Sequence record: OR067838.1
Source of the DNA: Escherichia phage KKP 3954
DNA: 64,000 bases
Direction: 5' to 3' (one strand)
Both the position numbers and the translations under genes were made by a program. Under the pieces are notes generated by a model. That model saw nothing but the letters and a program-made list of their open reading frames with translations. It had not been told where the DNA came from and searched no databases. Of this stretch, positions 1,726-16,951 are shown one piece after another. Position 1 is the stretch's first letter. Each line of letters begins with the position of its first letter.

Positions 1726-2033
1726 TAGGTAGAATTGTAAAGATTTGATAGTTTATTCCTTTGATGTTTTGTTGTTTGATAGGCATTAGTTATCAATATA
1801 TAGCGGGGTCTTCCGGTGATTATCTTCCCCTGCTTCCAGGTGCCGCCCGTTCAATAAGTATAACAAAAAACAGAACAAAAACAAGTCCTGTTTTTCTTAT
1901 TTTTAAAACCAGTTGCCAACCGTTTCCAATAGGTCACTGACTACCAGGACAACACTGATCAGCACATATTCAACTATGAAGGGGATAAGCGCCAGCGTCG
2001 CTACTATGATCCCCATTGTGATGATTACCTTTC

Positions 2034-2324
2034 TCATTGTTGGCGGCTTACGTAGGCTTTACCGTTTACGGTCATCGGTATGGCCTCAAGGTCTGGATCT
2101 TCCTTAAGGTCGCGTGCAAGCTCACCGCAGCGGATACCCTCGAATCCGTGGTATTCTGTCTCGCCGTCCTTGAAAGTTTTAGCGGCAAGGCATAGGCGAT
2201 AATTAACACCGATCCGGTTTACTGCGTTGATGTCGGTTAGCGTGATAGATTCCGGCAACTCATTAGCCATTGCAGGCGCGTTAATACCAACAACCAGGGC
2301 AACTACTGCGATCATCTTTTTCAT
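2034..2324 (-). CDS. Small secreted or periplasmic protein (N-terminal signal peptide)
   Basis: ORF track; N-terminus MKKMIAVVALVVGINAPAMA is signal-peptide-like; SD present. Confidence 0.6.
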   Translation of the reverse strand: MKKMIAVVALVVGINAPAMANELPESITLTDINAVNRIGVNYRLCLAAKTFKDGETEYHGFEGIRCGELARDLKEDPDLEAIPMTVNGKAYVSRQQ

Positions 2325-2960: not shown

Positions 2961-3041
2961 TTTACTTTCCTCATTATCGGCGGCACCATTGCCGCCCTAC
3001 GTGGTAAATATTAGCACACTGGCGATCTGTGTCAATACTTT

Positions 3042-3428: not shown

Positions 3429-3642
3429 GCTGTATACGCTCGACAATAATAATAGTTTGCGGGATCTCGTTTTCTACTACTAACAAGGCTTTTTTCTGTG
3501 TGATAGATATTTTAACACGTTGTAAAGTAGCGGTAAAATCTTTCATTTCATTATGCGCGGATTTAGTACAATGCCAGATCTCAGGTTTACCAACTTGCAA
3601 GCCGCGTAAAAATTCCGTTTTACCTGTCTTATTCGTGATCAT
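3406..3642 (-). CDS. Hypothetical early protein
   Basis: ORF track 3406..3651; ATG at 3642. Confidence 0.5.
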   Translation of the reverse strand: MITNKTGKTEFLRGLQVGKPEIWHCTKSAHNEMKDFTATLQRVKISITQKKALLVVENEIPQTIIIVERIQHENRNHY

Positions 3643-3652
3643 TTGTTTCACC

Positions 3653-3757
3653 TTAGCCGATACCGTGGGAAGATAGGATCATGTTAGCCATAGTTGCAAC
3701 CACTCCAACCGATAACGCCAGGCCCACTATTACAACCGTGAAAATTTTCTCTAACAT
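3653..3757 (-). CDS. Hydrophobic micro-protein (34 aa, single predicted TM segment)
   Basis: Not in ORF track (under 60 aa); ATG 3757 behind early promoter and leader; translation MLEKIFTVVIVGLALSVGVVATMANMILSSHGIG. Confidence 0.4.
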   Translation of the reverse strand: MLEKIFTVVIVGLALSVGVVATMANMILSSHGIG

Positions 3758-3838
3758 GATTCTACCCTCATTAATGGGCGTTGCCTTATTGCCCCGCCCT
3801 ACGAAATACATTCTACCCGATTTATAATTGTTGTCAAA

Positions 3839-4108
3839 TTATTTTTTCAAGCTTGACCACTCAAAACACGGGGCGATCTCGTTAAAACTTGTACCCTGTA
3901 AAGCACATAATTTTTTAGCAATAGCCGCCGTAACCTGGCGTTGAACGCGCGGATCTGCTACTGATTGGAGAAAGTAGGCGGTTTTATATGTGATCATGCT
4001 TTCGCCTGTTTCCTTGTTAACATGATGCACTATTTTAGCCTTATCATCTTTTACCAGGATGTAACCGGATTCGATGGCCTTGATTGCAACGTCCAATGAT
4101 ATTTTCAT
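3839..4108 (-). CDS. Hypothetical early protein
   Basis: ORF track; ATG start; hairpin leader upstream. Confidence 0.55.
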   Translation of the reverse strand: MKISLDVAIKAIESGYILVKDDKAKIVHHVNKETGESMITYKTAYFLQSVADPRVQRQVTAAIAKKLCALQGTSFNEIAPCFEWSSLKK

Positions 4109-4154
4109 GATTTACCTCTTTATTGACGGCGGGGATTACTCCCCGCCTCATTAA

Positions 4155-4325
4155 TTACTCTTCATCGTCGCCGTTATAGTATTCAATGCCGTTTTCATCG
4201 GTTACGGTGATATTAACGCCACCGATAGCAACACGATCACGGGCAAACGTCATGGCTTCATTTAAATCTTCAGACCAAAAAATATTGTGACCTTTGCGCG
4301 ATACATAAAACATAGTCGGGATCAT
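4155..4325 (-). CDS. Hypothetical early protein (about 56 aa)
   Basis: ORF track 4155..4409 begins inside the leader hairpin (translated as HIGRRNGP); start moved to ATG 4325. Confidence 0.5.
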   Translation of the reverse strand: MIPTMFYVSRKGHNIFWSEDLNEAMTFARDRVAIGGVNITVTDENGIEYYNGDDEE

Positions 4326-4410
4326 GATTTGTTTCTCTTCTGTTGTGAGCGGTGGACCATTCCGCCGCCCTATGTGGTAAACTTTACTACGTTGTTTGCG
4401 TGCTGTCAAA

Positions 4411-4695
4411 TTATTTTTTAATGTTTTGCCCTACAAAATTAATCATTTCCTTAAGCTGTCTCTCTGTCATGATCGTACCTGGTAATTCCTCTTTAATTTC
4501 TTGCGGTAAATAGATATTACCGTGCCAGGTTAACAAACAACCGTTTTGATCTTCGCAGATAGAATAAGAAAACATCCACTCGCAATCATTTTCAAGCTCC
4601 CAAAAACACAAAAAGTCTTCTTTCCCTAAGTTTTCAACGGTTAAGCATAATCCGCGACGTGCTGCATAATTAGTTAGGCTTTTTGTGATCTTCAT
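4411..4695 (-). CDS. Hypothetical early protein (Cys-rich)
   Basis: ORF track; ATG start; promoter and hairpin leader at 4700-4770. Confidence 0.55.
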   Translation of the reverse strand: MKITKSLTNYAARRGLCLTVENLGKEDFLCFWELENDCEWMFSYSICEDQNGCLLTWHGNIYLPQEIKEELPGTIMTERQLKEMINFVGQNIKK

Positions 4696-4755
4696 GATTT
4701 TTCTCTCTTCTTGTGAGCGGCATCATTGCCGCCCTACGAGATACACTTTACCAGA

Positions 4756-4884
4756 TTAAGCGGACTTGTCAAACTGTTTTTTCTTTTTCTTTGCTTCTAA
4801 CCGTCTAAGGTTACGGCTTGACTTATTGCGCAAGGCGCTTAGATCGTCGTACCCTTTCCATGCTTGCATATCTTTCGGATTCAT
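4756..4884 (-). CDS. Small basic protein (42 aa)
   Basis: Not in ORF track; SD AAGGGGA then ATG 4884; lysine-rich C-terminus. Confidence 0.4.
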   Translation of the reverse strand: MNPKDMQAWKGYDDLSALRNKSSRNLRRLEAKKKKKQFDKSA

Positions 4885-4893
4885 GTTATCCCC

Positions 4894-5055
4894 TTACTTG
4901 TTAGCCGGATTATATGCCAGGACCGCGCCGCTTGCTTTCACGCTTTCCGCTTCATAATTGCGCAAGTCTTCTTCTGTAAGATTGAGCGCGATCACTTCCT
5001 CGATCTCAACGTCAGCGGCAAGGGCGATCTCTTTGATAATGTCTGTTGTTTTCAT
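4894..5055 (-). CDS. Small acidic protein (53 aa)
   Basis: Not in ORF track; SD AAGGTG then ATG 5055; stop lies in the SD of the next gene. Confidence 0.4.
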   Translation of the reverse strand: MKTTDIIKEIALAADVEIEEVIALNLTEEDLRNYEAESVKASGAVLAYNPANK

Positions 5056-5065
5056 GGTATGCACC

Positions 5066-5185
5066 TTATAAGATGATTAATAAGATAGTGACAACGAAAG
5101 CGATTATACTGATGGCAAATGTCATCTTTTTACCTTCGGATACTGCCGGATTTTGTACCGTGTATTCTACTGTGTATTTGCTCAT
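5066..5185 (-). CDS. Hydrophobic micro-protein (39 aa, C-terminal TM segment)
   Basis: Not in ORF track; SD GAGAGGA then ATG 5185; behind promoter and leader at about 5200-5280. Confidence 0.4.
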   Translation of the reverse strand: MSKYTVEYTVQNPAVSEGKKMTFAISIIAFVVTILLIIL

Positions 5186-5283
5186 CGTGTAATCCTCTCG
5201 TTTGCTTTGGGAACTATTCCCGCCGCCCTATGAATTAAATATACACTATCTCAAAATGATTGCAAGCCTTTTTCTAAATTATT

Positions 5284-5568
5284 TTATGCAGTAAACAAAC
5301 CATCATTTACAACGGCGGCGATGATCTCCCGTGCCATTGATTCAGGGAAAGGGGCGCTATAGTCCTGGCTTGTCTCGTTGGTATCAGTGATCCAATGATA
5401 AGCTAACGAGTAAACGCCTTTACTAATTGTTTTCAGTGAGATGATGATCACTCGATTAAGCTTATTGGTGAATGTTGCCGTTAATGTGTTACCCTCCTGC
5501 GTCATGTTAGACAAGTAAGCGGCATCATTAACCAGGGAAAACATTAGCACGGTGTTAGCTTTACTCAT
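5284..5568 (-). CDS. Hypothetical early protein
   Basis: ORF track 5284..5628; start moved to ATG 5568 after leader hairpin; SD GAGGA. Confidence 0.55.
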   Translation of the reverse strand: MSKANTVLMFSLVNDAAYLSNMTQEGNTLTATFTNKLNRVIIISLKTISKGVYSLAYHWITDTNETSQDYSAPFPESMAREIIAAVVNDGLFTA

Positions 5569-5695
5569 GATTTCATCCTCAAAGGGGGCGCGGCACCATT
5601 GCCGCCCTACACGATAACTATAACACAATATAAAGCAGGATCAACTTTTATTTTTCCACGGTGTTAGTTTGTTAATCATTGGTGATAAATAACGT

Positions 5696-5854
5696 TTACC
5701 AACGTAAAACAAGTACGCCAACTGATGCAACGGCGGCGATCTCATGTAAGGAGGAAGGTCGCGCGGTGTCATAGTAGGTACCGATAATAGCAATAGCGGC
5801 AACGGCGGCAATATCGGTAATGATTTTTTCTTGTTTTGTTGTGATAGTGGTCAT
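5696..5854 (-). CDS. Hydrophobic small protein (52 aa)
   Basis: Not in ORF track; ATG 5854 behind promoter and leader at about 5870-5930. Confidence 0.4.
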   Translation of the reverse strand: MTTITTKQEKIITDIAAVAAIAIIGTYYDTARPSSLHEIAAVASVGVLVLRW

Positions 5855-5939
5855 AATGTTTTTCTCTTTTATGTGGTCGGGAACTATTCCCGCCCTATGC
5901 GATACATCTTATCAGACCTGGTTATGGTGTCAACCATTT

Positions 5940-6125
5940 TTAAAGATATTTTATATTAATAACGTTTTCAGGTTTAACCTTGTTGTGATGTGCATCAACA
6001 TAGATCAGACCATCGTCAGAAAAGCCCAGGATCACGCCCTGCGCAATAAAACCGTATTCGTCACGGTAACGCACGGCTATTTTTAATGTTGCGTTGTAGG
6101 CTGTTTTAAGCTCGTTTAAAGTCAT
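5940..6125 (-). CDS. Hypothetical early protein
   Basis: ORF track; ATG 6125 with SD AGGGGAT. Confidence 0.55.
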   Translation of the reverse strand: MTLNELKTAYNATLKIAVRYRDEYGFIAQGVILGFSDDGLIYVDAHHNKVKPENVINIKYL

Positions 6126-6180
6126 CTGTGTTTATCCCCTGCATGTAAAAAGAAAGGGCGCTTGATGCGCCCTTGTTATG

Positions 6181-6327
6181 TTAATCCTCTAAATCCATCC
6201 AATTATATTTGTCACTCTTCCCGCGCTTTGTTTTATTACGCTTATCGCCTTTGCGGATCACTTCCTCGTTCCAGGCCTTGCGGATCTTGGAAGATTGAAT
6301 TTTTTCTGCGCGATTAGATGTATTCAT
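6181..6327 (-). CDS. Small basic protein (48 aa)
   Basis: Not in ORF track; SD GAGGAAACA then ATG 6327; behind promoter and leader at 6340-6400. Confidence 0.4.
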   Translation of the reverse strand: MNTSNRAEKIQSSKIRKAWNEEVIRKGDKRNKTKRGKSDKYNWMDLED

Positions 6328-6406
6328 TTTGTTTCCTCTTCATATGAGCGGCACCATTGCCGCTATATTGTTAATTTAAACTGTTTTGTAAAATTGTCAA
6401 GGTTTA

Positions 6407-6760
6407 TCATTCATAAGAGCAAGCAAGGATCACGCCTGCAATATAAAGCCAATAATTTTCCCTTTCTCGTTGGATTTTATCATCGCTGCTATTCTCTTTA
6501 ATGTATCCCCAGGATGTTAACAAGCGATCAATTTCCCAATATTCGAAAGCGATATTGATATCTGATGGCAAACCTTGTAACCATGATGCAAGTGCTTTAA
6601 CAATACTATAATTAAAACGTGATTGGTTATCAGGGTACCAATACTCGGAATTAAAACGGCGCATCAATTCCGCGATCTTCTCTTTTTCGGTTGTAATACC
6701 GTAATCATTAAAATCGATAGCGGCAAGGATGTACTCTTTAATTGCATTTTGTGCTTTCAT
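6407..6760 (-). CDS. Hypothetical early protein
   Basis: ORF track; ATG 6760; promoter and leader at 6775-6835. Confidence 0.55.
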   Translation of the reverse strand: MKAQNAIKEYILAAIDFNDYGITTEKEKIAELMRRFNSEYWYPDNQSRFNYSIVKALASWLQGLPSDINIAFEYWEIDRLLTSWGYIKENSSDDKIQRERENYWLYIAGVILACSYE

Positions 6761-6850
6761 GGTCTTTCTCTCTTTTTGAGCGGGAACTATTCCCGCCCTA
6801 CGTGTAACAGTTTACTAAAAATTAAATCCGTGTCAAGCCTTATTTTGTTA

Positions 6851-7063
6851 CTACCATTTGGTATACCCTGTCTCAATGTTAGTAAACACTGTTATCCCGT
6901 CCTGGCGTTCACTCATTAACATACAAGGCGCTAACATCCTTTCTACTGCCTTGCACTCATTATAAGCGGCGGTGATGTCTCCTGCTGCCTTGTCTTCTGT
7001 GGTGAATGTATCGTTTACGTAAACCTGACCAGCAACAACGGCGACAATAGCAAAAGTAATCAT
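6851..7063 (-). CDS. Hypothetical early protein (hydrophobic N-terminus)
   Basis: ORF track; ATG 7063; promoter with -10 inside the hairpin loop at 7085-7135. Confidence 0.55.
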   Translation of the reverse strand: MITFAIVAVVAGQVYVNDTFTTEDKAAGDITAAYNECKAVERMLAPCMLMSERQDGITVFTNIETGYTKW

Positions 7064-7137
7064 GATGTTTCCTTGTTAATAGTGGTTTCTCTTCTCTATA
7101 GCGCCCATTATAAGGCGCTATAACGAAAAGTCAACGA

Positions 7138-7305
7138 TTATTTTTTAAGGCTTAAAGTACCTAACTTGTCAGCATGACGCAGACCAGGGAAGATCCATTT
7201 GCCTGATTCATCTTTTACCGGGGCTTTAAACGTTGCGCCCAGGTTGGCGGCGTTAACTTTACGTGCAACGTTGCGAGCGGCTTCACGGGTAGCGAAAGTG
7301 ATCAT
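7138..7305 (-). CDS. Hypothetical early protein (about 55 aa)
   Basis: ORF track 7138..7389; start moved to ATG 7305 with SD GAGGAAACA. Confidence 0.5.
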   Translation of the reverse strand: MITFATREAARNVARKVNAANLGATFKAPVKDESGKWIFPGLRHADKLGTLSLKK

Positions 7306-7395
7306 GATGTTTCCTCTTCTCTTTGTTAGGCGGTGGGCTATTCCACCGCCTTGATGAATACAGTTTACTTTATTTTTGCAGTATTGCAAGCGGTT

Positions 7396-7611
7396 TTATG
7401 AAATAAATGTCAAAGTAAAATCATAATCTTTTGACAGTTTATATTGCACCTTGTTACCGTATATGTCACCTTTACGTAAAGATCCACGGATACCGATAAC
7501 ATCCTTCACGTCTTTTAAATTTTTCACGCCTGTAATGTCTTTGTTGAAATACTCGTCATCTGAAAATAAAACTTGCTTTGCATTTTTTAACAAGGTGCGG
7601 ATATTAGCCAT
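7396..7611 (-). CDS. Hypothetical early protein
   Basis: ORF track; ATG 7611; hairpin leader at about 7630-7660. Confidence 0.55.
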   Translation of the reverse strand: MANIRTLLKNAKQVLFSDDEYFNKDITGVKNLKDVKDVIGIRGSLRKGDIYGNKVQYKLSKDYDFTLTFIS

Positions 7612-7701
7612 CGTGATAATCTCTCTTCTGTTGTGAGCGGCACCATTGCCGCCCTATGTAATATATTCTACTCTTTTTCTTTCCGGTGTCAACAATCTTT
7701 T

Positions 7702-7929
7702 TCAGATTAATTCGTCCAGGCATAACAAGCGATCAACGTTGAGATCGGTTAGGCTAATCGTCGGCACCTGGTAGGATTCGATATACTCAACGCTTGCATA
7801 TTCCCCAAAATTAGCAACAGCCCAGTTATTCAAGATTTCACATACATCATTAATCTTTTTGTTTGTTACAACTGCTACAACCTGGGAATAGCCAACGGTG
7901 CCGGATACGCGAACAATATTGATAGCCAT
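7702..7929 (-). CDS. Hypothetical early protein
   Basis: ORF track; ATG 7929; hairpin leader at 7953-7972. Confidence 0.55.
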   Translation of the reverse strand: MAINIVRVSGTVGYSQVVAVVTNKKINDVCEILNNWAVANFGEYASVEYIESYQVPTISLTDLNVDRLLCLDELI

Positions 7930-7983
7930 AATCTTTAATCTCTCTGTTGTGAGCGGGAAACCATTTCCCGCCCTATGCGATAC

Positions 7984-8011
7984 ATCTTACACTAATTTTA
8001 AACGTTGTCAA
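7984..8011 (-). promoter_or_regulatory. Early promoter of the conserved family (TTGACA, 16 nt spacer, TAAGAT), followed by GC stem-loop leader at 7953-7972
   Basis: Hexamers read on minus strand; same architecture in more than 20 copies. Confidence 0.55.
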
Positions 8012-8020
8012 CTGTTTTTA

Positions 8021-8260
8021 TTACATTCCAACCATCGCGGCACGGATCGCAGTAGTGCTATATTTGAAACCGTCTGGAGTTTTATCTTGTCCAGTTTGTT
8101 CCAGAAAAAGCATCATATCCCGCGCCGCATCATTACGATTAGCATTAGCGTTAATAAAATCCAAGGCCAACCGATACAATGATTCATCGTTATTAATCCA
8201 AAGGCTTACATTCCAATGAGTTTTGTTTTTGTGACCGTTGTAAGTTTTAGTAATAGCCAT
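8021..8260 (-). CDS. Hypothetical early protein
   Basis: ORF track; ATG start; promoter and leader upstream. Confidence 0.55.
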   Translation of the reverse strand: MAITKTYNGHKNKTHWNVSLWINNDESLYRLALDFINANANRNDAARDMMLFLEQTGQDKTPDGFKYSTTAIRAAMVGM

Positions 8261-8349
8261 GATGATAATCTCTCTTTGAATGAGGCGGGAACTATTCCCG
8301 CTCTCTATGTAATACAGTTTACTCTTTTTATTCGTGCTGTCAATGCTTT

Positions 8350-8715
8350 TTATAAATCTTTTTTACGTTTTACATCGCTTGCATGACTGTATACAGTGAT
8401 CCCATTATCACGGCAAAAACGGGAAAGATACGCGCCACGTGAAAACTCTTTACCTTCCATATTAATAACCTTGCTAAATTCTTCCAGGGCGACGGTATCA
8501 AAATGATCACCATAGCCATATTGAAACGGAACGTTAACCACCTCGATCAATTTACCGCCGATCTCAACGTCAACCATTAAAGAAAAATATGTGTTACCGT
8601 AGGACTGTTGAAACCAGCGACGGGCGCTAATATGCACCGCCTCAATGCTGGATAATTCAATTTTAGCCGTGTTAGCCAGGGTAGCATAAGAGGAAACATT
8701 AATATTACTAGCCAT
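8350..8715 (-). CDS. Hypothetical early protein
   Basis: ORF track 8350..8733; ATG 8715 preferred (SD AAGGT); the 8733 ATG abuts the hairpin without an SD. Confidence 0.5.
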   Translation of the reverse strand: MASNINVSSYATLANTAKIELSSIEAVHISARRWFQQSYGNTYFSLMVDVEIGGKLIEVVNVPFQYGYGDHFDTVALEEFSKVINMEGKEFSRGAYLSRFCRDNGITVYSHASDVKRKKDL

Positions 8716-8803
8716 GATGATAACCTTTTTCATTGTTGGCGGGAAACCACTTCCCGCCCTATGTGGTAAACTATACCAGAAGTTTAAACAGTGTCAACCG
8801 TTT

Positions 8804-9166
8804 TTATTCGTAAATTTTACCGCTTTCGGCCCATACCATAACGCGGCGCATACTATCCCAAGTGTTTTGATCCAGGTTTAAGCCGTGCAACTCTTCGGTA
8901 CTTCCCAGACCAGGTACCGCCTTGTTGTAAGTTGCATATAAGCGCCCTTGATACTCATATGCCAGGGTGAGATCCGTTTGAATCATCTTTTTAAGCATAG
9001 CATTAAGCATCATATTAGCGGCATGTTGATCACGTTTTAGCGGTAACATATCAATAAGGGCGCGATAAGCTGAAACATGAATATCAACCGTTTCACGTGG
9101 TAAATTTTTCATATCATCGCGGAAAGATACCAGATTAAACATGATAGTATTGATTTGCTTGCTCAT
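8804..9166 (-). CDS. Hypothetical early protein
   Basis: ORF track; ATG start; leader hairpin at 9188-9209. Confidence 0.55.
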   Translation of the reverse strand: MSKQINTIMFNLVSFRDDMKNLPRETVDIHVSAYRALIDMLPLKRDQHAANMMLNAMLKKMIQTDLTLAYEYQGRLYATYNKAVPGLGSTEELHGLNLDQNTWDSMRRVMVWAESGKIYE

Positions 9167-9220
9167 TGTGTTACCCTTTTTTGTTTTGGCGGGGAAGTAT
9201 TCCGCCGCCCTATGTGATAC

Positions 9221-9248
9221 ATCTTATCAGATTAAAAAACGTTGTCAA
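9221..9248 (-). promoter_or_regulatory. Early promoter of the conserved family (TTGACA, 16 nt spacer, TAAGAT)
   Basis: Hexamers on minus strand, followed by stem-loop 9188-9209 and SD+ATG of gene 8804..9166. Confidence 0.55.
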
Positions 9249-9256
9249 GAATATTT

Positions 9257-9352
9257 TTAGAAAATAATAACCGCTACTACAATCCAAAATGGAACGGCTA
9301 GAATGATACCGTTAATCGTTCCAACCGTCAAGCTATTTTCTTTATTAATCAT
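9257..9352 (-). CDS. Hydrophobic micro-protein (31 aa)
   Basis: Not in ORF track; SD AAGAGG then ATG 9352; translation MINKENSLTVGTINGIILAVPFWIVVAVIIF. Confidence 0.35.
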   Translation of the reverse strand: MINKENSLTVGTINGIILAVPFWIVVAVIIF

Positions 9353-9434
9353 TGTAAGCCTCTTGTATAATTTCACTATGAGCGGCACCATTGCCGCCCT
9401 ACGTGGTAAATATTATGCTAGTGGCGGCGATATG

Positions 9435-10254
9435 TCAAAGACTATTTTCAAAGTTTTCTAGGGCGATCCTTTTTTCTTCCTCTGTCGGCTGATAATCAGG
9501 AAAAGCATCAACACACAACAACGGCGGGATCTCTTCATACTCTTCCTCTTCCGTTGTCTCCTCGTCTTCCTCCTGGGCTATGGCTGCAATTTTGGCTAAT
9601 TTTCTCTCCGCTTGAATCAGTTTACCATCAAATACGTTTTTTGCCATGTTGTAAGCGGTCCAGGTGATGCGCTTACTTTCTAGTGCTTCATCAAGCGCCG
9701 CTATCTTGCTGGGGTATTCATCCAGGACACGAAAAGCCGGATCAACTTTGTATACAAGGGATTATCTTTCGCACCGTCGCTCGCATCTTCCGCACTGGAT
9801 AAATCAGCGTTACCATTTGCCAGCCAACCAGGGCGCACATAACGCGCTTTTACGTTGCCGTTACTACGTGCTAATCTGTTACCTATTTGCTCCCCGCTAT
9901 AGCCCGTGGATTCATCGACAAGATAATCAGGAATGATGCGCGGATCATCTGCTTCATGTTTTACCCAAGACTGGATCACATATTCGCGGCCCATATTAAC
10001 CACCTTTTTTTCAACAATCGGCATACTTTAAAAAGACTTGCTGAATCCTTGCAAGGGTAGAAAGATGTACGATAGTCACGTACGCCAACCTTGCGGATCT
10101 CGATGTTCTCGCATGTTGTTTGATCAAAAATATTTATTTCATCACGCCCCCTTATATAAACATAATGGGGATGTATTAACGCATACTTTGCTAATCTGTA
10201 AAAAGCGTTATCCTTGAACGCGATCACGTGACCTTTTAATTTGATGTAAAACAT
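9435..10254 (-). CDS. Hypothetical early protein with acidic C-terminal domain; one gene split into three track ORFs (9976..10254, 9701..10024, 9435..9647) by two apparent 1-nt deletions (T7 run 10005-10011; GTATAC 9750-9755)
   Basis: Only the first ORF has promoter, leader and SD (ATG 10254); the internal ATGs lack an SD; reading continues without stops after a -1 shift at each junction; C-terminus is Glu/Asp-rich. Confidence 0.5.
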
Positions 10255-10330
10255 TCTACCACCTTACAAATAGCGGGAACTATTCCCGCTTTATGTAACA
10301 TATTAACAAATTATTCGTTAATGTCAAGCC

Positions 10331-10603
10331 TTAAAGCAAAAACGCTACATCTTGCGCTTTTAGTGTAGTATCAACCATTTTTGGGCTTTTATAATCAACA
10401 AAACGCGCGGTTTTTTCAATAGCAAAACCGAGATAATCTTGTTTATTGAATTTACATTCTTTCTTAAATGTTTCCCGCGCCACGGTGATCGCTGCGTCCA
10501 GGGATAAACGCCCGTCAATGTTGATATTTGCGAAAGATCCGCCACCGCTCATAGGTTTACCAGTGGTGCCAGCTACGATCATTGTTGCGCTATATGATGC
10601 CAT
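10331..10603 (-). CDS. Hypothetical early protein
   Basis: ORF track 10331..10663 starts inside the leader hairpin; start moved to ATG 10603. Confidence 0.5.
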   Translation of the reverse strand: MASYSATMIVAGTTGKPMSGGGSFANINIDGRLSLDAAITVARETFKKECKFNKQDYLGFAIEKTARFVDYKSPKMVDTTLKAQDVAFLL

Positions 10604-10626
10604 GATTATAATCTCTCTTCTGTTGT

Positions 10627-10650
10627 GAGCGGCTGGACCATTCCGCCGCC
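10627..10650 (-). other. Conserved GC stem-loop in the 5-prime leader of early transcripts (example copy; family consensus GGCGGCAATGGTGCCGC with compensatory variants)
   Basis: More than 20 copies between promoter -10 and SD; stem changes are compensatory (e.g. CGGGAACTATTCCCG, CGGGAAACCATTTCCCG). Confidence 0.6.
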
Positions 10651-10661
10651 CTATGTGATAC

Positions 10662-10689
10662 ATCTTATCAGGTTGTTGGTTGTTGTCAA
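10662..10689 (-). promoter_or_regulatory. Early promoter of the conserved family (TTGACA, 16 nt spacer, TAAGAT)
   Basis: Hexamers on minus strand upstream of leader hairpin 10627-10650. Confidence 0.55.
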
Positions 10690-10695
10690 TACTTT

Positions 10696-10893
10696 TTATT
10701 CTATTCCTGCAATCTGATTAACGCGTTTGCATTTTGTAGCGTGCTGGTCTTCTGTAATTACTCCCATTTCTAACAGTGAATCAATGAAAGATAAAACCGT
10801 TTCATGATCATCCTGGGGATGACTGAACTCAGTAAAACCGTTTACTACCACGTTTATTTGTCCAGCTTTCGCCACAATGTGCAATGTTGCCAT
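10696..10893 (-). CDS. Hypothetical early protein (about 65 aa)
   Basis: ORF track 10696..10983; start moved to ATG 10893 after the leader hairpin; SD GGAG. Confidence 0.5.
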   Translation of the reverse strand: MATLHIVAKAGQINVVVNGFTEFSHPQDDHETVLSFIDSLLEMGVITEDQHATKCKRVNQIAGIE

Positions 10894-11080
10894 GATCTTA
10901 ACTCCAAATAGTGAGCGGCACCATTGCCGCGCTACGTGGTAAATATTATGCCGCCACCTGGCGAACGTCAACCACTTTTTCAATCTTTTTTATTTTCTTT
11001 TTGCTTGCTATATATAAAGGAAAGGGCTATCATCTTTCTACCGCGCCAACCAGGGCGCACAACAAAGAAAGGGCGACACC

Positions 11081-11347
11081 ATGACAACTACTACATTACA
11101 CCTTATGCACTCATTGGGCTGGCAAGGCGGCACGGTGCACCAGGTAGCAAGCGCAACAGGCTTAAAGGTTGAAACCGTTCTCAACCTGGGCGATCATAAA
11201 GTGGAAGAGATAGAACATTTTGATCCGTTCGCTGATGGTTATTTATGGGCTTGCAGTGGCGGCGGGGAAAGCAAGATCCCGCCAGCGGCGCGGGGCGATA
11301 TGCATTTTTGGTTAGGTGTCCTTTCCTGGCAAGAAAACAAAAAATAA
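11081..11347 (+). CDS. Hypothetical protein in a GC-rich island (atypical composition, possible moron)
   Basis: ORF track; only plus-strand gene in the first 18 kb; local GC clearly above the genome background. Confidence 0.45.
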   Translation: MTTTTLHLMHSLGWQGGTVHQVASATGLKVETVLNLGDHKVEEIEHFDPFADGYLWACSGGGESKIPPAARGDMHFWLGVLSWQENKK

Positions 11348-11349
11348 TC

Positions 11350-11378
11350 TTGACAAGCCCAGGGATCGGGCTTATACT
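11350..11378 (+). promoter_or_regulatory. Near-consensus sigma70 promoter (TTGACA, 17 nt spacer, TATACT) followed by a GC-rich structured segment of about 110 nt
   Basis: Hexamers seen directly; same GGG(A)CTTATACT -10 context recurs at 46759-46787. Confidence 0.5.
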
Positions 11379-11719
11379 GTTTTACATACAGAAGAGGAAG
11401 CGCCACCCCACGGCGTAAAGGCGGGGCTAACATACCAGGGCGCTGGTTGGAAGGTTGATCGCCGGTAGGCTGGGCGCTATATATTTGTAAAGAAATGTAA
11501 AGATAAAATAATCGCTTGCTTTCCTGGCTGGATCTGTTATTCTTATTACATGGCGAGGGGATACGGGAACGCGAGACAAACACCGCCCCTGCGCGTCATT
11601 CTCTAAATGAGAATGATTATCATTTACCTTATTGAATAAGAATCAATCTCATTTATAAACTTAAATGCGAATCATTATCATTTGCATTTCCATATGAGAA
11701 CTCTTCTCATTCTCACCTG

Positions 11720-11960
11720 CATAAATTTTTGTAAACTTTAAATTTTGCTTTTGTATTTTCATTTTTGTAAAAGCAAAAAAACTTTAAATACTGTGGGCGC
11801 GCAAAATTTTTAAAATTTTCCTTGACTTTTGAGTTTTGTTTTGTATCTAACATTTTAAGATAATTTTCCTAAACTTTAAATTTTGGTTTTCAACTTTCAC
11901 TTTTGTAAATTCTTAAAAAGTTTAAATAATTTGAGGAATTTTTGAGATAACAGGTAGTGG
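11720..11960. repeat. AT-rich region with two imperfect direct repeats of about 65 bp (each with AAACTTTAAATTTTG and TTTTGTAAA) and a TTTGAGATAAC direct repeat
   Basis: Repeats read directly in the sequence; no ORFs; lies between the two minus-strand gene clusters. Confidence 0.45.
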
Positions 11961-12060
11961 TAATTTGAGATAACCTTTAATCTTGTTGGTAAACCTTCAG
12001 GAACCCACCTAGATCGAATCCTAGAAAGGTCAACTGAAAAAGACAAGTGTTTGTATAGGA

Positions 12061-12096
12061 CAAAATAATAGGCTCTCTACGGTGCTGTAGGAGCCT
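12061..12096 (-). terminator. Rho-independent terminator downstream of the NADAR gene
   Basis: Hairpin GGCTCTCTAC..GTAGGAGCC followed by T-rich tract on minus strand. Confidence 0.5.
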
Positions 12097-12151
12097 TATT
12101 TCTGTGCTACAAAGTGGCACCTTTGTTCTAAAAATGAAAAAAGTTAAAATA

Positions 12152-12694
12152 TCACAAATATCGTCTTTGCGGTATTTTGTCTGGGAAAAGTATTTCGATC
12201 AGTTTATTATGATATTTGCCTAAAAGATTCTGCCCTTTCCAAGTGGCAGGGTTGAGCACCCCTGGTTCATACATCCCCATTCCAATTCCGTAAACCTTAT
12301 CGTAGGGGCTTGCTTCAACAAACGTTTTGTATTGGTAAAGGTGCAAGTCTGCATACAAATCTGGATTCTGTATATATTTCAAGCATAAACCTCGCATAAC
12401 AATACGCTCACGGTTCTCTTCCCACACGTTGTTATCAAAATCCGACACTGCCCTACCCATACGTTTGTAATAAGCTTGTTTCCTCTCGTTGTCACGTATA
12501 GTCGAGTGATCAAGGATAGCTGCTGCAATCGCATGATCCTTGAACAGCAAAGCCTTACGCCACATCATGTATTGCTCAACACAACAGAAAGTCTCATTGT
12601 AACCTGGTTCGGTTTCTGTAAAGGGTGCAATATACCAATTACTAAAAACATCTTTATGTGAAAAGAAGAATACATATTCGTCAGTTATTCTCAT
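12152..12694 (-). CDS. NADAR-domain (YbiA-like, DUF1768) protein; candidate ADP-ribose-processing enzyme
   Basis: 180 aa; FFF..FSNW..PF, EQ..M..KA.LF and NP.L motifs typical of the YbiA/NADAR fold. Confidence 0.6.
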   Translation of the reverse strand: MRITDEYVFFFSHKDVFSNWYIAPFTETEPGYNETFCCVEQYMMWRKALLFKDHAIAAAILDHSTIRDNERKQAYYKRMGRAVSDFDNNVWEENRERIVMRGLCLKYIQNPDLYADLHLYQYKTFVEASPYDKVYGIGMGMYEPGVLNPATWKGQNLLGKYHNKLIEILFPDKIPQRRYL

Positions 12695-12870
12695 TTTTTC
12701 ATACCTTCTAAGACTTTAGCTTGCCCGTCTTGAAAAGCTTTCATCAGAACTATCTTAAGATTGACTTCCAAACGTTCTTCATCCTCTTTATAACAATCCA
12801 ACACTGCTTTAAGTTCATCATAGTGGTTCAGAATAGGTTTAAAGATTTCATGATCTGCTAAACGTGCCAT
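12691..12870 (-). CDS. Hypothetical protein (about 59 aa)
   Basis: ORF track 12691..12906; start moved to ATG 12870 with SD AAGGAG. Confidence 0.5.
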   Translation of the reverse strand: MARLADHEIFKPILNHYDELKAVLDCYKEDEERLEVNLKIVLMKAFQDGQAKVLEGMKK

Positions 12871-12883
12871 AGTTTCTCCTTTG

Positions 12884-13249
12884 TTAATCCATCCACCAGT
12901 AGCCATAAACTGCGTCTGCGTCGATGAGTTTGTGTTTGTTGTTCCGCATGTAGTCTAAGATAAGTAGACGTTTATTGTATCTAGAGAGATTATGACCCTC
13001 TTTTCCGCCATAGTCAAAATATTTTGCAAGATCTTTACACTCAAACAAAATCAGTTCGGGAGTTTCTTCACACTGGTCTGTCTGGTACACTTGACGAATG
13101 ATCATGTATACATCGTCGTCTTCCGCTAAATGCTCTACTGGTCCACATCCAGCAGGAACAAATTCATAGTCCCATCTGATCAGATGTTTCTCTACTGCTT
13201 CAAAGAAGTCCATTCTTTCGTTGCGCATAATTTGAACGTCAACTAACAT
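12884..13249 (-). CDS. Hypothetical protein
   Basis: ORF track; ATG 13249 with SD AGGAGGA; contains an in-frame GTATAC at 13106-13111 with no break. Confidence 0.55.
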   Translation of the reverse strand: MLVDVQIMRNERMDFFEAVEKHLIRWDYEFVPAGCGPVEHLAEDDDVYMIIRQVYQTDQCEETPELILFECKDLAKYFDYGGKEGHNLSRYNKRLLILDYMRNNKHKLIDADAVYGYWWMD

Positions 13250-14234
13250 GTTTCCTCCTGTAATGTTCCACCATAAAGTTTATAAATGTTTTGTATTGAG
13301 GCCATGCAAGATAACTCTACTGTTTCTGTGTAGCCATCTGGCATAGAATATTTGCTCACTGCTTCCGTGTGAAGGACACGCTTACAACGCTTTTCTGCAT
13401 CTTTGCATTGCTTCACAGTAGGGAAGTGCCACACTTGGCTCTGTTTCATAGTAAACACATTATGACTATTTTGTTCTTTGATACGGCGATCACTACTATT
13501 GGCAATACCAAACTTCAAAGCACAGAGAAGATTTTGTTCATCGTAGATATAGTTGATGTATGCCTGTTGTTGTGTATGCCCTTTACACTGCGGACAACCA
13601 CGCCCCTTATGTAATAAGTGGTCAGCATTCCCTATTTGCTCCCCGTGATCCTTACATCCATATTTAAACTCTCCTGTTGAGGAAGGTTTACTAATCCACT
13701 CCATCCAGATATATCCTTTACTTTCTAAACCTTTTCTCACCTTGTAAGTGATCTGATCTTTTGTGTAACGGTAAACTCTAGTATACAACGACAAGGGATA
13801 ATCCCTTTTTTAAGATCGTTCCCTGCAATGTAAAATTTACCATCACACACTCCTGCTTGTACGTATTCATCATGAGAACAAACAGGACATTCAACCATCC
13901 AGAGAATATGACTCCCTTTACGTTTGCCTGTATTGGTGAAAATAGTACCAGGTTTAAACTTTCCTGTGTTAATGAAATCTTTTATGTGCTGATCGTCTGT
14001 CTTACCTCCTTTCCCAACTCCTTTCCCAATTGCACAGACAGGACAACCAGCACGACCAGTTTTAAAGTTTTTAAATGTTGTAGTGTTCCATTCATGAGCA
14101 TACTGACAACGATTGATCATTTTCGTGTGTTGTCCTGTAAACGGCTCAACAATTCCAATAATCTCAATCCCTTTAGCAGCAGCAATAGGTTGACACTCTT
14201 CAATATATTGTTCAATACTCTTCTTTACTGGCAT
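13243..14234 (-). CDS. Zn-finger plus T5orf172 (MUG113-like) domain protein; split into track ORFs 13737..14243 and 13243..13794 by an apparent 1-nt deletion at GTATAC 13781-13786
   Basis: N-terminal CxxC pairs; C-terminal LKFGIANSSDRRIKEQN resembles the T5orf172 core; the two ORFs join after a -1 shift inside the overlap. Confidence 0.45.
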
Positions 14235-14311
14235 ATCTAACAATTATCTCCCTATTAAACTGAAATCAATATAACAAAACCCGCCGAAGCGGGTTTAATA
14301 AGGGAGCCTTA

Positions 14312-15453
14312 TTAGAACACGCTACCCAGTGTGGTGGAACGTTGTGTTACAGGCTCCAGCACCACTCGCAGAGTGTTACCTGGTGTAGTGCTCGTCACCA
14401 GAATCTTACCACCTTCAATCAGATCACAAGTTAGACCATCACCCGTTGCACATAGATCAATATGTGGATCACCATCTTCGTCCAGGATAACATAACTGTT
14501 GGTTTCCATTGCTTCCACTTCATCATCTTTCAAACTTTGTAGATAGATGTTCAGGGAACAAGCGCCCGACAAAAACTTAGTAGGGGTGAAGTCGTGCCAG
14601 TTATTGATCCAATTCACCTTCAAGGTTTTGCCATTAGCTACGATAGAAGCCACATTCCATTTAGCATCGTTCCCTAAAGAAATACCCATCATTTCAAGAC
14701 ATTCTTTAAAAGTCATTTTTGGATAGAAATTCAATTCTTCTACAATGCCTTGAATAACATCGAAAGACAACTCTGTGCTAACATCCCATAAACGTTGGAA
14801 GTTATCTACGTGCTTTTTATTTACCAAGTTCTTATCCAAGTAATCTAACATAGTTTCACTAGACAGTTTATCGTAATTGAAACTGTAGTAGATACGACTA
14901 GGACGGTTTACAAAATATTCCGAGATATAGCCACTATTTTTAGTGAGGATGTAAAGTTTATTTCCACTTCCTGTTCCATCCAACAAGGTCAACAGTGCTT
15001 CCTGATCTTCTTTCTTAGCGTATACACTTTATCAAACTCGTCAAATAAAACAACAGCACGATCTGTAATTTTACTCATAAATTCTAAGAATCCAGCATCT
15101 GTGTAAGGCTGTGTCACCAAAATGGTTGGAATACCTAAACCTTCTGTGGACATTAGGGACATGCTAATCAGTTTAGCTAACATCGTCTTACCACTGCCCT
15201 TTGTCCCTGTCAGTAACACCCCAGTATTTTTACCTTCTTTACTACGACGAGCAAATGTTTTAATAACATGTGCGGCGCGGTCTTTAGTTTCCCCATAAAG
15301 AGTGTTCGGAAGAGAGAAACTTTCGCCACGCACTAAAGAGTAGTTACCGTGCGGATCGCAGTTGACAACCCAAACTCCAGCAGGAAGTTTATTAGCTTCA
15401 ACACCATATTCCTTATTTACAACAGCCACATCTCCAAAAATAGTGTATTTCAT
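14312..15453 (-). CDS. P-loop NTPase (AAA-type ATPase); split into track ORFs 14989..15507 and 14312..14992 by an apparent 1-nt deletion at GTATAC 15020-15025
   Basis: Walker A GTKGSGKT and Walker B VVLFDEFD; start at ATG 15453 with SD AAGGAG; downstream ORF begins on TTG without an SD and continues in the -1 frame. Confidence 0.55.
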
Positions 15454-15478
15454 TAAAACGTTTCTCCTTTTAAAATAA

Positions 15479-15811
15479 TTACTGTAAACTTTGCAGTTTT
15501 TTCTCACTCTTAATATTCTTGATTAATAAATACTCTCCTCCAGGTGCATCTTTGTATTGTTTAATAGCTACTATTTCATTTTTGCAAGTAGCTATAATCG
15601 AATAAAAAGGACGTTCCGTGTTATCTTCTTTTCCTGTATATGCCTCAACATCTTTGCACTCTTCTAGAACACCATTCCCAGGTGTATAGTAAAACTTGTT
15701 GCCTGTGATCACAACATCTTTACCAATATCCGTTTTAACTGCTACAAATTTTTGAGCGTAAGTGGTGAAGCTTACGGTAGCCAGCAATGTGGCTAAGATT
15801 AATTTTTTCAT
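15479..15811 (-). CDS. Small secreted protein (signal peptide)
   Basis: ORF track 15479..15841; ATG 15811; N-terminus MKKLILATLLATVSFTTYA. Confidence 0.55.
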   Translation of the reverse strand: MKKLILATLLATVSFTTYAQKFVAVKTDIGKDVVITGNKFYYTPGNGVLEECKDVEAYTGKEDNTERPFYSIIATCKNEIVAIKQYKDAPGGEYLLIKNIKSEKKLQSLQ

Positions 15812-15822
15812 AAACTTCCCTC

Positions 15823-15987
15823 CTATTCCCACAACATACAAATCGCAGCGACAAACATATTAGCAATAGCCGCACCAAGAACTATAAACATCGCCAATTC
15901 AGAACAATATTCACCAACCAAAGGGGATACTATTGCACAAAGTAGTCCCAATGTCAAACACAAGTTGATGATGAAGTTTAAAATCAT
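15823..15987 (-). CDS. Hydrophobic small membrane protein (54 aa)
   Basis: Not in ORF track; ATG 15987; two hydrophobic segments; stop abuts the SD of the next gene. Confidence 0.4.
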   Translation of the reverse strand: MILNFIINLCLTLGLLCAIVSPLVGEYCSELAMFIVLGAAIANMFVAAICMLWE

Positions 15988-15996
15988 ATTCTCTCC

Positions 15997-16161
15997 TTAC
16001 AACCAACCCTTTGCCTGATAGCCTTTAGAAAATCCATCTTCCCATTCTTCGAATTCCTTTTTGTGTGTCATTGGACAATATGGATTTACTTTATTAAACA
16101 TACCAAACTTGAACCCTGCGGTATACCCTTTCTTAAAAGCTATTGATTCTAAAGAGATCAT
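15997..16161 (-). CDS. Hypothetical protein (about 54 aa)
   Basis: ORF track 15997..16188; start moved to ATG 16161 with SD AGGAG. Confidence 0.5.
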   Translation of the reverse strand: MISLESIAFKKGYTAGFKFGMFNKVNPYCPMTHKKEFEEWEDGFSKGYQAKGWL

Positions 16162-16174
16162 ATTCTTTCTCCTC

Positions 16175-16764: not shown

Positions 16765-16774
16765 ATTACCTCCA

Positions 16775-16951
16775 TTAACCAATTAGTTCAACCGATTTGC
16801 AAATGTAGATCCAAACTGGAGTGAGCATAAGAGCTATACCGAATGCACAATTCCACTTAATTCCCATTTCCTCTATTAGAGACATGATTAAGCCAACAGC
16901 ACTAATAATCAGATAGATCCCTAAGAAAGCCATTGTGAAGAATTCAGACAT
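16775..16951 (-). CDS. Small membrane protein (two predicted TM segments)
   Basis: ORF track 16775..16963; ATG 16951 with SD GGAG. Confidence 0.5.
   Translation of the reverse strand: MSEFFTMAFLGIYLIISAVGLIMSLIEEMGIKWNCAFGIALMLTPVWIYICKSVELIG

Follow-up and report, generated by a model that had tools for sequence, protein, structure and literature searches.

Conserved micro-ORFs, several probably encoding membrane peptides, among the promoter-hairpin modules of a phAPEC8-like Escherichia coli phage

A stretch of 64,000 nucleotides from Escherichia phage KKP 3954 (OR067838.1; hereafter the window) raises the question of whether the short open reading frames (ORFs) lying between its called genes are themselves genes and, if so, what transcribes them and what their products might do. 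By sequence, the window is a Phapecoctavirus, a phAPEC8-like E. coli myophage, with 93-96% DNA identity to Phapecoctavirus genomes. A sequence-only reading had proposed eight short ORFs with good Shine-Dalgarno (SD) sequences. All eight were found on the minus strand at exactly the coordinates given there; each opens with ATG, ends in a stop codon and is preceded by an SD-like motif at a distance of 4-10 nt.

3653..3757, minus strand: c3653, a 34-aa single-TM micro-protein (MLEKIFTVVIVGLALSVGVVATMANMILSSHGIG) with ATG and a GAGGG SD
4756..4884, minus strand: c4756, a soluble micro-protein, basic (pI 10.4), encoded third in the 5066 operon
4894..5055, minus strand: c4894, a soluble, acidic protein of 53 aa (pI 4.3), encoded second in the 5066 operon
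5066..5185, minus strand: c5066, a 39-aa peptide, polar in its N-terminal half and with a TM segment at the C-terminus (residues ~19-39)
5641..5854, minus strand: c5696 locus, a conserved gene of 68-70 aa (phAPEC8_002) whose product has a basic tail and two segments of weak hydrophobicity
6181..6327, minus strand: c6181, a soluble 48-aa protein, very basic (pI 10.0), forming a monocistronic unit
9257..9352, minus strand: c9257, a 31-aa peptide that begins with a polar stretch (MINKENSLTVG) and has its TM segment at the C-terminus
15823..15987, minus strand: c15823, a 54-aa peptide with two predicted TM segments (helical hairpin), several cysteines and an AAGGAG SD

Comparative data indicate that the eight ORFs are real protein-coding genes, with conserved lengths and with purifying selection acting on the proposed frame. 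When each interval was shuffled, an ORF of such length with ATG and SD arose in at most 0.7% of shuffles per interval. Intact orthologues of all eight were found in 9-12 related loci, in which the SD motifs are also conserved. In short alignments of close phage relatives, pN/pS was 0.13-0.57 in the proposed frame versus 0.61-9.5 in shifted frames, with values of 0.13 for c4756, 0.21 for c5696, 0.27 for c6181, 0.28 for both c3653 and c4894, and 0.40 for c15823; those of c9257 (0.44) and c5066 (0.57) are moderately low only. Each ORF occurs in 63-204 phage records, from c5066 (63) through c15823 (70), c9257 (107, by tblastn) and c6181 (129) to c3653 (204, by tblastn, Vequintavirinae included). 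Length and motifs are retained even in distant homologues of the two shortest peptides: the c3653 homologue in phage nom is 56% identical, also 34 aa long, and carries the motif ATMAN[MV]ILSS[HN]GIG, and that of c9257 in Klebsiella phage 05F01 is 55% identical and keeps KENSLTVG..NG.I...PF. Profile searches matched seven of the eight to PHROG families: c3653 to 14631 (E 1.7e-22), c4756 to 31652 (E 2.6e-28), c4894 to 35944 (E 2.1e-38), c5066 to 10979 over its full length (E 2.5e-20), c5696 to 30003, c6181 to 2490, and c15823 to 27459 (E 1.4e-38). No PHROG matched c9257.

The ORFs are not new, most being annotated in relatives as hypothetical or membrane proteins. They are the same genes as named small proteins of phAPEC8-like and rV5-like phages (phAPEC8_002, _004, _005, _007, _00250 and _00269; FV3_00160), with 74-100% amino-acid identity and the same order and context, and their counterparts in phage tuntematon are gp026, gp028, gp029, gp031, gp033, gp044 and gp056. 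Among these, phAPEC8_007 and gp026 correspond to c4756, gp028 to c4894, phAPEC8_004 and gp029 to c5066 (together with Mt1B1_P17 gp016, all three labelled 'membrane protein'), gp044 to c9257 (with ukendt gp061), and phAPEC8_00250 and gp056 to c15823, a member of which one source names 'TMhelix containing protein'. In KKP 3954 itself, WLW41302.1 is the exact c4894 sequence and WLW41316.1 the c9257 counterpart. The eight were noted as missing from the ORF track; all are shorter than 60 aa, the default cut-off of a mechanical ORF list, which is probably the reason. Publicly, only the two shortest are often unannotated (c3653 in 19 of 34 annotated records and c9257 in 15 of 36 records, among the matches listed for each); c15823 is annotated in 12 of 12 among the matches listed. 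In the SKA64 record, c6181 is labelled 'transaminase', which we rejected as a 16-bit chance match.

Two of the eight are atypical in the window. Alignment with seven relatives revealed that 5696..5854 (52 aa) is the front part, cut short by a frameshift, of a phAPEC8_002-type gene; all nine relatives carry this gene intact at 68-70 aa. The frame is broken by a 1-nt insertion near 5712 that is specific to the window, and the ancestral frame ends at 5641. The match to PHROG 30003, a 68-position profile, covers positions 2-47 only, and the exact truncated form (WLW41305.1) was found in KKP 3954 only. Likewise, a stop codon mutated from TAG to CAG extends c4756 to 42 aa in the window; eight relatives encode 36 aa there and phage nepoznato 34 aa. 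The PHROG profile of c4756 has 36 positions. Either the window encodes two aberrant products here or its sequence contains errors.

Five of the eight ORFs (c3653, c5066, c5696, c6181 and c9257) are the first cistron behind a repeated cassette, in which a sigma-70 promoter close to consensus is followed by a GC-rich hairpin (a few nucleotides past the predicted start site), an SD left unpaired and the ATG.

3758..3837, minus strand: P3837 promoter-leader module, TTGACA-16-TAGAAT, 5' hairpin GGGCG...CGCCC, then SD
5186..5265, minus strand: P5265 promoter-leader module, TTGCAA-16-TATATT, weak hairpin, SD GAGAGG
5855..5933, minus strand: P5933 promoter-leader module, TTGACA-16-TAAGAT and hairpin
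6145..6174, minus strand: intrinsic terminator of the c6181 unit, 8-bp GC-rich stem, then TTTCTTTTT
6328..6400, minus strand: P6400 promoter-leader module, TTGACA-16-TAAATT and hairpin GCGGCAATGGTGCCGC
9353..9438, minus strand: P9438 promoter-leader module, TTGACA-17-TAATAT and hairpin

Alignment of 17 module copies gave the consensus TTGACA-N16-TAAnAT-nTATCACATAGGGCGGCAATGGTGCCGC...AGAGA-ATG, with hairpins predicted to fold at about -8 to -15 kcal/mol while the SD stays free. The hairpin of P3837 (-14.9 kcal/mol, z -3.9; SD unpaired) is followed by those of P9438 (-14.4 kcal/mol), P6400 (-11.4 kcal/mol) and P5933 (-10.7 kcal/mol, z -3.2); that of P5265, a module read directly from the sequence and then aligned with the others, is weak (-7.8 kcal/mol, z -0.9). 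An alternative long start of c3653 at 3811 overlaps the -10 box of its module. The modules resemble the PeSL (promoter-early stem-loop) cassettes known in T4-type phages (Arbiol et al. 2010, PMC2839356; PMC4122927), which likewise are repeated intergenic units of a strong sigma-70-like promoter, GC-rich stem-loop, SD and ATG, dense among small, variable ORFs of unknown function where gene content varies between close relatives. They differ in belonging to a Stephanstirmvirinae lineage and in that the stem-loop always follows the -10 box, which places it within the transcribed leader, and has no U-tract. Host RNA polymerase would transcribe such cassettes immediately upon infection, and by analogy with T4-type PeSL the 5' hairpin may stabilize the short mRNAs, attenuate read-through, or both. 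We infer that these ORFs are early and translated, because the literature searched contained no RNA-seq, Ribo-seq or proteomics for any Phapecoctavirus.

The proposal that every one of the eight sits directly behind such a module did not extend to c4894, c4756 and c15823. The first two lack a promoter of their own and, judged from the gene arrangement, are co-transcribed behind c5066; the 3' end of c4756 overlaps the -35 box of P4772. In some genomes only, phAPEC8_006 sits between c4894 and c4756, a cassette-like presence/absence. c15823 lies in the interior of a long operon of closely spaced genes, and no promoter module was found at it. The further idea that the promoters serve the micro-ORFs rather than larger genes sets up a false contrast, since at least 12 other module copies directly start ORFs of 56-121 aa. 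Moreover, between P3837 and the two larger genes beyond c3653 there is neither a terminator nor a new promoter, so P3837 must drive those genes too. P9438 has c9257 as its sole cistron before promoter P9248 follows, and c6181 is the only one of the eight shut off by an intrinsic terminator.

The product of c6181 is a member of Pfam PF08200 (Phage_1_1, T7 gene 1.1 protein), scoring 49.8 bits where the cut-off is 21 (E 4.9e-13) and covering the whole 40-position profile. Like T7 gp1.1, it is small, very basic and encoded in a host-type-promoter region; unlike in a T7-like podophage, it resides in a 150-kb myophage as a stand-alone promoter-gene-terminator unit. To our knowledge, this family has no established function.

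The products had been described as mostly hydrophobic, and this is borne out for c3653, c5066, c9257 and c15823, with c5696 borderline. By a Kyte-Doolittle hydropathy heuristic, the sole basis of our TM calls, the best 19-aa window scores 2.45-2.93 for the former four and 1.52 for c5696, in which two 17-aa segments exceed 1.6. Five of the eight are thus probably membrane peptides, four with clear TM segments. These four are predicted to insert into the inner membrane, as the full-length c5696 protein probably does, and the acidic c4894 and basic c4756 and c6181 products would be cytoplasmic. For c5066, the C-terminal TM segment accompanies the full-length match to PHROG 10979, although that family's 'membrane protein' label is itself a prediction.

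The products most likely serve as accessory factors that the phage can dispense with, or in host interaction, for example in takeover, exclusion or counter-defence. A narrower proposal, that the hydrophobic peptides are early effectors binding host envelope or cell-division proteins, or inner-membrane superinfection-exclusion factors, fits the four clear TM peptides and the borderline one, their location in a region rich in sigma-70-type promoters, and the C-terminal motif of c3653, whose conservation in two phage subfamilies suggests a specific partner. PHROG 10979 is also filed under 'moron, auxiliary metabolic gene and host takeover', but a category is an annotation label rather than a test, membrane location alone cannot name a target, and in searches of Pfam, PHROGs and NCBIfam none of the hydrophobic peptides matched a family of known function or showed homology to a characterized inhibitor or exclusion protein. 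We regard this proposal as possible but doubtful. A holin/antiholin-type lysis protein among the TM peptides, c15823 in particular, is very improbable: a two-TM hairpin and small size resemble class II holins, yet c15823 ends in ...CMLWE, with no charged C-terminal tail and no K or R, matches no holin family, and lies in an operon with an ATPase and an endonuclease, with the endolysin gene ~24 kb away (annotated in Schickermooser, L014 24273-24794, roughly window 40.3 kb).

Alternatively, the promoter-proximal micro-ORFs, c3653 and c9257 especially, might work chiefly in cis, serving as leader or upstream ORFs, their translation controlling downstream genes through coupling or the opening of mRNA structure and the peptide itself being unimportant. 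Both are very short first cistrons; the c3653 stop codon lies 10 nt before the next gene's ATG (at 3642), with an SD between, and the next promoter immediately follows c9257. However, the gene after c9257 thereby has an independent promoter module, so no coupling is needed there, c6181 is followed by its terminator, and the constraint on both peptides, together with their conserved motifs and lengths, makes this an improbable account. Comparative data weigh even more heavily against the view that the ORFs code for nothing and are open by chance, within untranslated leader or intergenic spacer sequence. Frames of only 31-54 codons, the two shortest omitted by many annotators and one (c9257) lacking a PHROG match, could in principle arise in this way, but all are intact in every relative examined, substitutions fall mostly at third positions with pN/pS well under 1 in the proposed frame only, SD motifs are conserved, chance in shuffled sequence accounts for at most 0.7% per interval, and homologues exist in other subfamilies. 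This explanation is largely refuted and in our view scarcely credible. We consider it likely that all eight are genuine small coding genes of the variable, small-ORF-rich region of the phAPEC8-like phage.

The minus strand carries at least six further ORFs of less than 60 aa that the original list lacks. Of these six, the ORFs at 1903..2037 and 16775..16951 are hydrophobic; comparison with PHROGs confirmed two of the six.

The sequence-only reading had pointed to eight short ORFs with good SD sequences that were missing from the ORF track. All eight were found on the minus strand at precisely the coordinates given there, each with an ATG and a stop codon. They are listed here by lower coordinate, with TM segments predicted by hydropathy, in-frame pN/pS values (short alignments with modest power), numbers of records in a phage collection, and counterparts in related phages.

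The eight short ORFs
c3653: 3653..3757, minus strand; 34 aa, one predicted TM segment (residues 1-29); pN/pS 0.28; 204 phage records; FV3_00160, longer form ASO2A_011
c4756: 4756..4884, minus strand; pN/pS 0.13; tuntematon gp026, phAPEC8_007
c4894: 4894..5055, minus strand; pN/pS 0.28; tuntematon gp028, phAPEC8_005
c5066: 5066..5185, minus strand; 39 aa, predicted C-terminal TM segment (residues 19-39); pN/pS 0.57; 63 phage records; tuntematon gp029 'membrane protein', phAPEC8_004
c5696: 5696..5854, minus strand; two segments pass the 17-aa window, 19-aa window 1.52 only; pN/pS 0.21; tuntematon gp031, phAPEC8_002
c6181: 6181..6327, minus strand; pN/pS 0.27; 129 phage records; tuntematon gp033, phAPEC8_00269
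c9257: 9257..9352, minus strand; 31 aa, predicted C-terminal TM segment (residues 8-31); pN/pS 0.44; 107 phage records; tuntematon gp044
c15823: 15823..15987, minus strand; 54 aa, two predicted TM segments; pN/pS 0.40; 70 phage records; tuntematon gp056, phAPEC8_00250

An SD-like motif lies 4 to 10 nt 5' of every ATG (8/8; GAGGG, GAGAGG, AAGAG, AAGAGG, AAGGAG, AAGGGGA, AAGGTG, and AAGAGGAA), and these motifs are kept in relatives at the proper spacing from the start. When each interval was shuffled 5,000 times, 0.02 to 0.7% of trials gave an ATG ORF that had an SD and was as long as the observed one or longer. Local tblastn against 13 related loci recovered intact orthologues of all eight ORFs in 9 to 12 genomes. 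Their lengths are the same or a few residues apart across relatives, the exceptions lying in the window itself, where c5696 is truncated and c4756 is extended. Pooled Nei-Gojobori pN/pS, measured on short alignments with modest power, was 0.13 to 0.57 in frame versus 0.61 to 9.5 in the +1 and +2 frames of the same alignments. Distant homologues were also found. The c9257 homologue in Klebsiella phage 05F01 has 55% identity and retains KENSLTVG..NG.I...PF, and c3653, carried by more than 200 rV5-like and phi92-like phages and present also in rV5-like Vequintavirinae, has a homologue in phage nom with 56% identity. The nom protein is likewise exactly 34 aa long, keeps the C-terminal ATMAN[MV]ILSS[HN]GIG (near-invariant ATMANxILSSxGIG), and sits behind the same kind of hairpin leader. 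Judged from the sequence, all eight ORFs are real protein-coding genes, a conclusion carried by their intactness, in-frame pN/pS, distribution, and distant homologues. ASO2A and ESCO13 annotate c3653 as a longer gene of 52 aa (3653..3811). This form was rejected, because its start codon and the -10 box of P3837, the promoter module ahead of the gene, overlap, and because the nom homologue does not conserve the added N-terminal residues.

Positions 3000-16500 of the window show 93 to 96% identity to many genomes of Phapecoctavirus, a group of E. coli myophages in the Stephanstirmvirinae that resemble phAPEC8 and have genomes of ~150 kb. The KKP 3954 genome is 149,856 bp, and an exact-sequence look-up returned the c4894, c5066, and c9257 products as its proteins WLW41302.1, WLW41303.1, and WLW41316.1. 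Seven of the eight ORFs match PHROG profiles along their whole length (E values of 1e-15 to 1e-38; c5066 falls in PHROG 10979, 'membrane protein'), while c9257 had no PHROG match. The eight ORFs are thus not new; mostly annotated already in relatives, they are ordinary members of the set of small uncharacterised genes carried by phAPEC8-like phages. The true annotation gap is limited to the two shortest, c3653 and c9257. Among the records listed, c3653 is left unannotated in 19 of 34 annotated records (including phAPEC8, phi92, ukendt, and tuntematon) and c9257 in 15 of 36, the 31- and 34-aa genes being absent from 42 to 56% of annotated records among those listed. The simplest reason for the absence of all eight from the track is that each is shorter than 60 aa, the minimum length at which mechanical ORF lists usually start. 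The earlier list was itself incomplete, as the same strand carries at least six more ORFs of less than 60 aa.

Further ORFs of less than 60 aa
1903..2037, minus strand; 44 aa, strongly hydrophobic
4155..4325, minus strand; matches PHROG 20874
7138..7305, minus strand; further short ORF
12691..12870, minus strand; further short ORF
15997..16161, minus strand; matches PHROG 26347
16775..16951, minus strand; 58 aa, strongly hydrophobic, two predicted TM segments

Two of these six were checked against PHROG, and both matched. The first 17 kb of the window thereby contains at least 14 conserved genes of less than 60 aa. ORF tracks with a 60-aa floor lose a sizeable share of the real genes in small-ORF-rich regions of phages, and the shortest genes are inconsistently annotated in public records.

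The architecture of the promoter-hairpin cassettes and the operon structure around them are evident in the window, where genes from 1 to 18000 lie on the minus strand and the GC skew flips at ~18 kb. At least 17 cassette copies, in each of which a promoter is followed by a 5' hairpin and then by an SD and an ATG, are found on the minus strand from 2961 to 10977, with the consensus AAA...TTGACA-N16-TAAnAT-nTATCACATAGGGCGGCAATGGTGCCGC-TCACAACAGAAGAGAGA...ATG.

Promoter-hairpin cassettes (P, numbered by -35 box position)
3035, 3837, 4409, 4772, 5265, 5933, 6400, 6836, 7692, minus strand; cassette -35 boxes
8011, 8343, 8797, 9248, 9438, 10327, 10689, 10971, minus strand; cassette -35 boxes
P3837, minus strand; first ORF c3653
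P5265, minus strand; first ORF c5066
P5933, minus strand; first ORF c5696
P6400, minus strand; first ORF c6181
P9438, minus strand; first ORF c9257

The sigma-70-like promoters are near consensus (TTGACA-16/17-TAnnnT, at least 17 copies), a match from which activity is predicted. The hairpin begins a few nucleotides past the predicted transcription start; in six of the seven leaders tested it has a folding energy of -10.7 to -14.9 kcal/mol, with the SD unpaired. The P5265 hairpin is weak, and the -35 box of this cassette is slightly degenerate (TTGCAA). Stem sequences vary among the copies while complementarity is kept. The GenBank record of ASO2A labels such hairpins as intrinsic (rho-independent) terminators; this reading was rejected because they have no U-tract, and they lie between promoter and gene. 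An Rfam scan of positions 1-18000 returned no known RNA family overlapping the ORFs. The cassettes would be transcribed by the host sigma-70 RNA polymerase at the onset of infection, and the 5'-proximal hairpin may stabilise short transcripts, attenuate read-through, or both.

The claim that each micro-ORF sits directly behind such a module holds for five of the eight. However, c4894 and c4756 are the second and third cistrons after c5066, with their SDs in short spacers, and c15823 lies inside a tightly packed operon without a cassette. The proposal that the promoters drive the micro-ORFs rather than the larger genes further on was partly right. The next cassette follows immediately after c5696 and after c9257, and a strong intrinsic terminator at 6174-6154 closes c6181. 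In contrast, neither a terminator nor a promoter precedes the two genes after c3653 (the next ATG, at 3642, is 10 nt past the stop), so that P3837 also drives larger genes. In addition, at least 12 other cassettes directly start ORFs of 56 to 121 aa, so that the cassette is not restricted to micro-ORFs.

The closest described system is the promoter-early stem-loop (PeSL) of T4-type phages, in which strong sigma-70 promoters and GC-rich stem-loops precede an SD and an ATG (PMC2839356). Hyperplastic regions with small ORFans are rich in PeSLs, and it is through these elements that modules are shuffled (PMC2839356). The window cassettes resemble them in pairing a sigma-70-like promoter with an adjacent stable stem-loop; PeSLs, however, come from T4-type myoviruses, whereas this phage belongs to the Stephanstirmvirinae. 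We therefore regard the cassettes as PeSL-like by analogy, and not as a described PeSL member. Differences in gene content between cassettes of close relatives are consistent with this analogy. For example, phAPEC8_006, a gene of 279 nt that has its own promoter (L001 2262-2540), lies between the c4894 and c4756 homologues in tuntematon, Mt1B1_P17, ASO2A, and SKA64, and is absent from the window (between 4884 and 4894), ukendt, P3322, and B15, with the junction at the SD of c4756.

At the 3' end of c4756, the stop codon TAG has become CAG in the window, which lengthens translation by six codons and takes it into the following promoter's -35 box; eight relatives have a 36-aa protein, and nepoznato has one of 34 aa. 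In relatives the stop of this gene directly abuts that -35 box (TAGTTTGACA; site 4756..4772).

The c5696 ORF differs from its relatives in another way. The window carries one extra T near 5712 (GTACTTG here, GTACTG in all seven aligned relatives). Reconstruction of the ORF in nine relatives gave a protein of 68 to 70 aa every time, ending in ...VGVLFYVGKRYLSPMINKLTPWKNKG, a tail that can be read in the window in another frame, to 5641. Of the 68 positions in the PHROG profile, the window protein matches only 2-47. We therefore reject 5696..5854 (52 aa) as a native micro-protein; it is the frameshifted front of a conserved 68-70 aa gene. By exact-sequence look-up the truncated product is WLW41305.1 of KKP 3954 and was found nowhere else, and no contigs encoding it are on record. 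Comparison of the window with six to seven relatives revealed further private insertions and genes that they split.

Private insertions and split genes in the window
3432, 6861, 9750, 13781, 15020, 19947, 38688; TA insertions, GTAC (conserved in all compared relatives) to GTATAC
5712, 10011, 15504, 22421, 30996, 33585; other private homopolymer and 1-2 nt indels
14312..14992 and 14989..15507; split homologue of a 379-aa ATPase
13243..13794 and 13737..14243; split endonuclease homologue
9435..9647 and 9701..10024; split homologue of tuntematon gp045

The seven GTATAC insertions account for five of about nine private insertions in 2.5-17.5 kb, with two more in 16-41 kb, a pattern that is strongly non-random. 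As the insertions damage conserved genes, they suggest that the deposited genome contains systematic errors of sequencing or assembly, tied to a motif, and the c5696 frameshift may accordingly be an artefact too.

The products had been described as mostly hydrophobic, with three soluble ones. TM segments were called heuristically wherever a 17-aa Kyte-Doolittle window reached 1.6. The hydrophobic character was borne out for c3653, c5066, c9257, and c15823, whereas c5696 is only moderately hydrophobic. The three products named as soluble are charged, c4756 and c6181 being very basic (pI 10.4 and 10.0) and c4894 acidic (pI 4.3). The hydrophobic products would insert into the inner membrane, and the charged ones would act in the cytoplasm. 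For c6181, Pfam gave a match to PF08200 (Phage_1_1, the T7 gene 1.1 protein) over profile positions 2-40 of 40, at 49.8 bits against a gathering threshold of 21 (E = 4.9e-13); the neighbours of c6181 are PHROGs of unknown function, and a sequence search of the PDB returned no matches. The other seven ORFs gave only sub-threshold DUF matches in Pfam, and NCBIfam had no matches save a spurious 16-bit WecE fragment for c6181. This fragment accounts for a mis-annotation. The SKA64 homologue of c6181, UKM17251.1, is named 'TDP-4-keto-6-deoxy-D-glucose transaminase' on a 25-residue, 16-bit chance match to WecE models with cut-offs of 375 to 435 bits; the protein actually belongs to the T7 gp1.1 family.

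None of the eight ORFs matched a characterised inhibitor, exclusion protein, or holin family in PHROG, Pfam, or NCBIfam, and their neighbouring genes are all of unknown function. With its two predicted TM segments, c15823 was considered as a holin and rejected; it has no K or R, lacks a charged C-terminal tail and ends in MLWE, and the endolysin gene is ~24 kb away, without linkage. Searches of the literature on Phapecoctavirus, Vequintavirus, or phAPEC8 transcriptomes and on phage KKP 3954 returned nothing useful and no expression data for the group; a PhageMaP paper was set aside, as it concerns Bas63, a Felixounavirus. That the micro-proteins target host envelope or division proteins, as the earlier reading proposed, is a hypothesis we hold to be rather unlikely. 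Even less probable, in our estimate, is that c3653 and perhaps other TM peptides represent a type of micro-effector not yet characterised, early and membrane-bound, that has a specific partner in the host envelope, and we would put at the same low level the separate idea that the cassettes are a PeSL-like gene-shuffling system outside T4-type phages. To a phage genomicist nothing here is surprising, and the eight ORFs reveal no function. They are among the uncharacterised genes of a phage group in therapeutic use, and small predicted-membrane and charged proteins with strong host-type promoters make a reasonable shortlist for screens of toxicity, exclusion, and counter-defence.

Two minus-strand genes, 15479..15811 (directly downstream of c15823) and 2034..2324 (upstream of 1903..2037), begin with Sec-type signal-peptide-like sequences (MKKLILATLLATVSFTTYA and MKKMIAVVALVVGINAPAMA), so that predicted secreted proteins adjoin TM micro-proteins. 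Finally, the non-coding stretch 11590-11940, between divergent transcription units, contains three TAAATGAGAATGATTATCATTT-like repeats spaced at 29 nt, together with a 72-nt repeat whose copies are 138 nt apart. Its counterpart is labelled 'repeat_region' in tuntematon and muut, and it could be a replication origin or iteron region.
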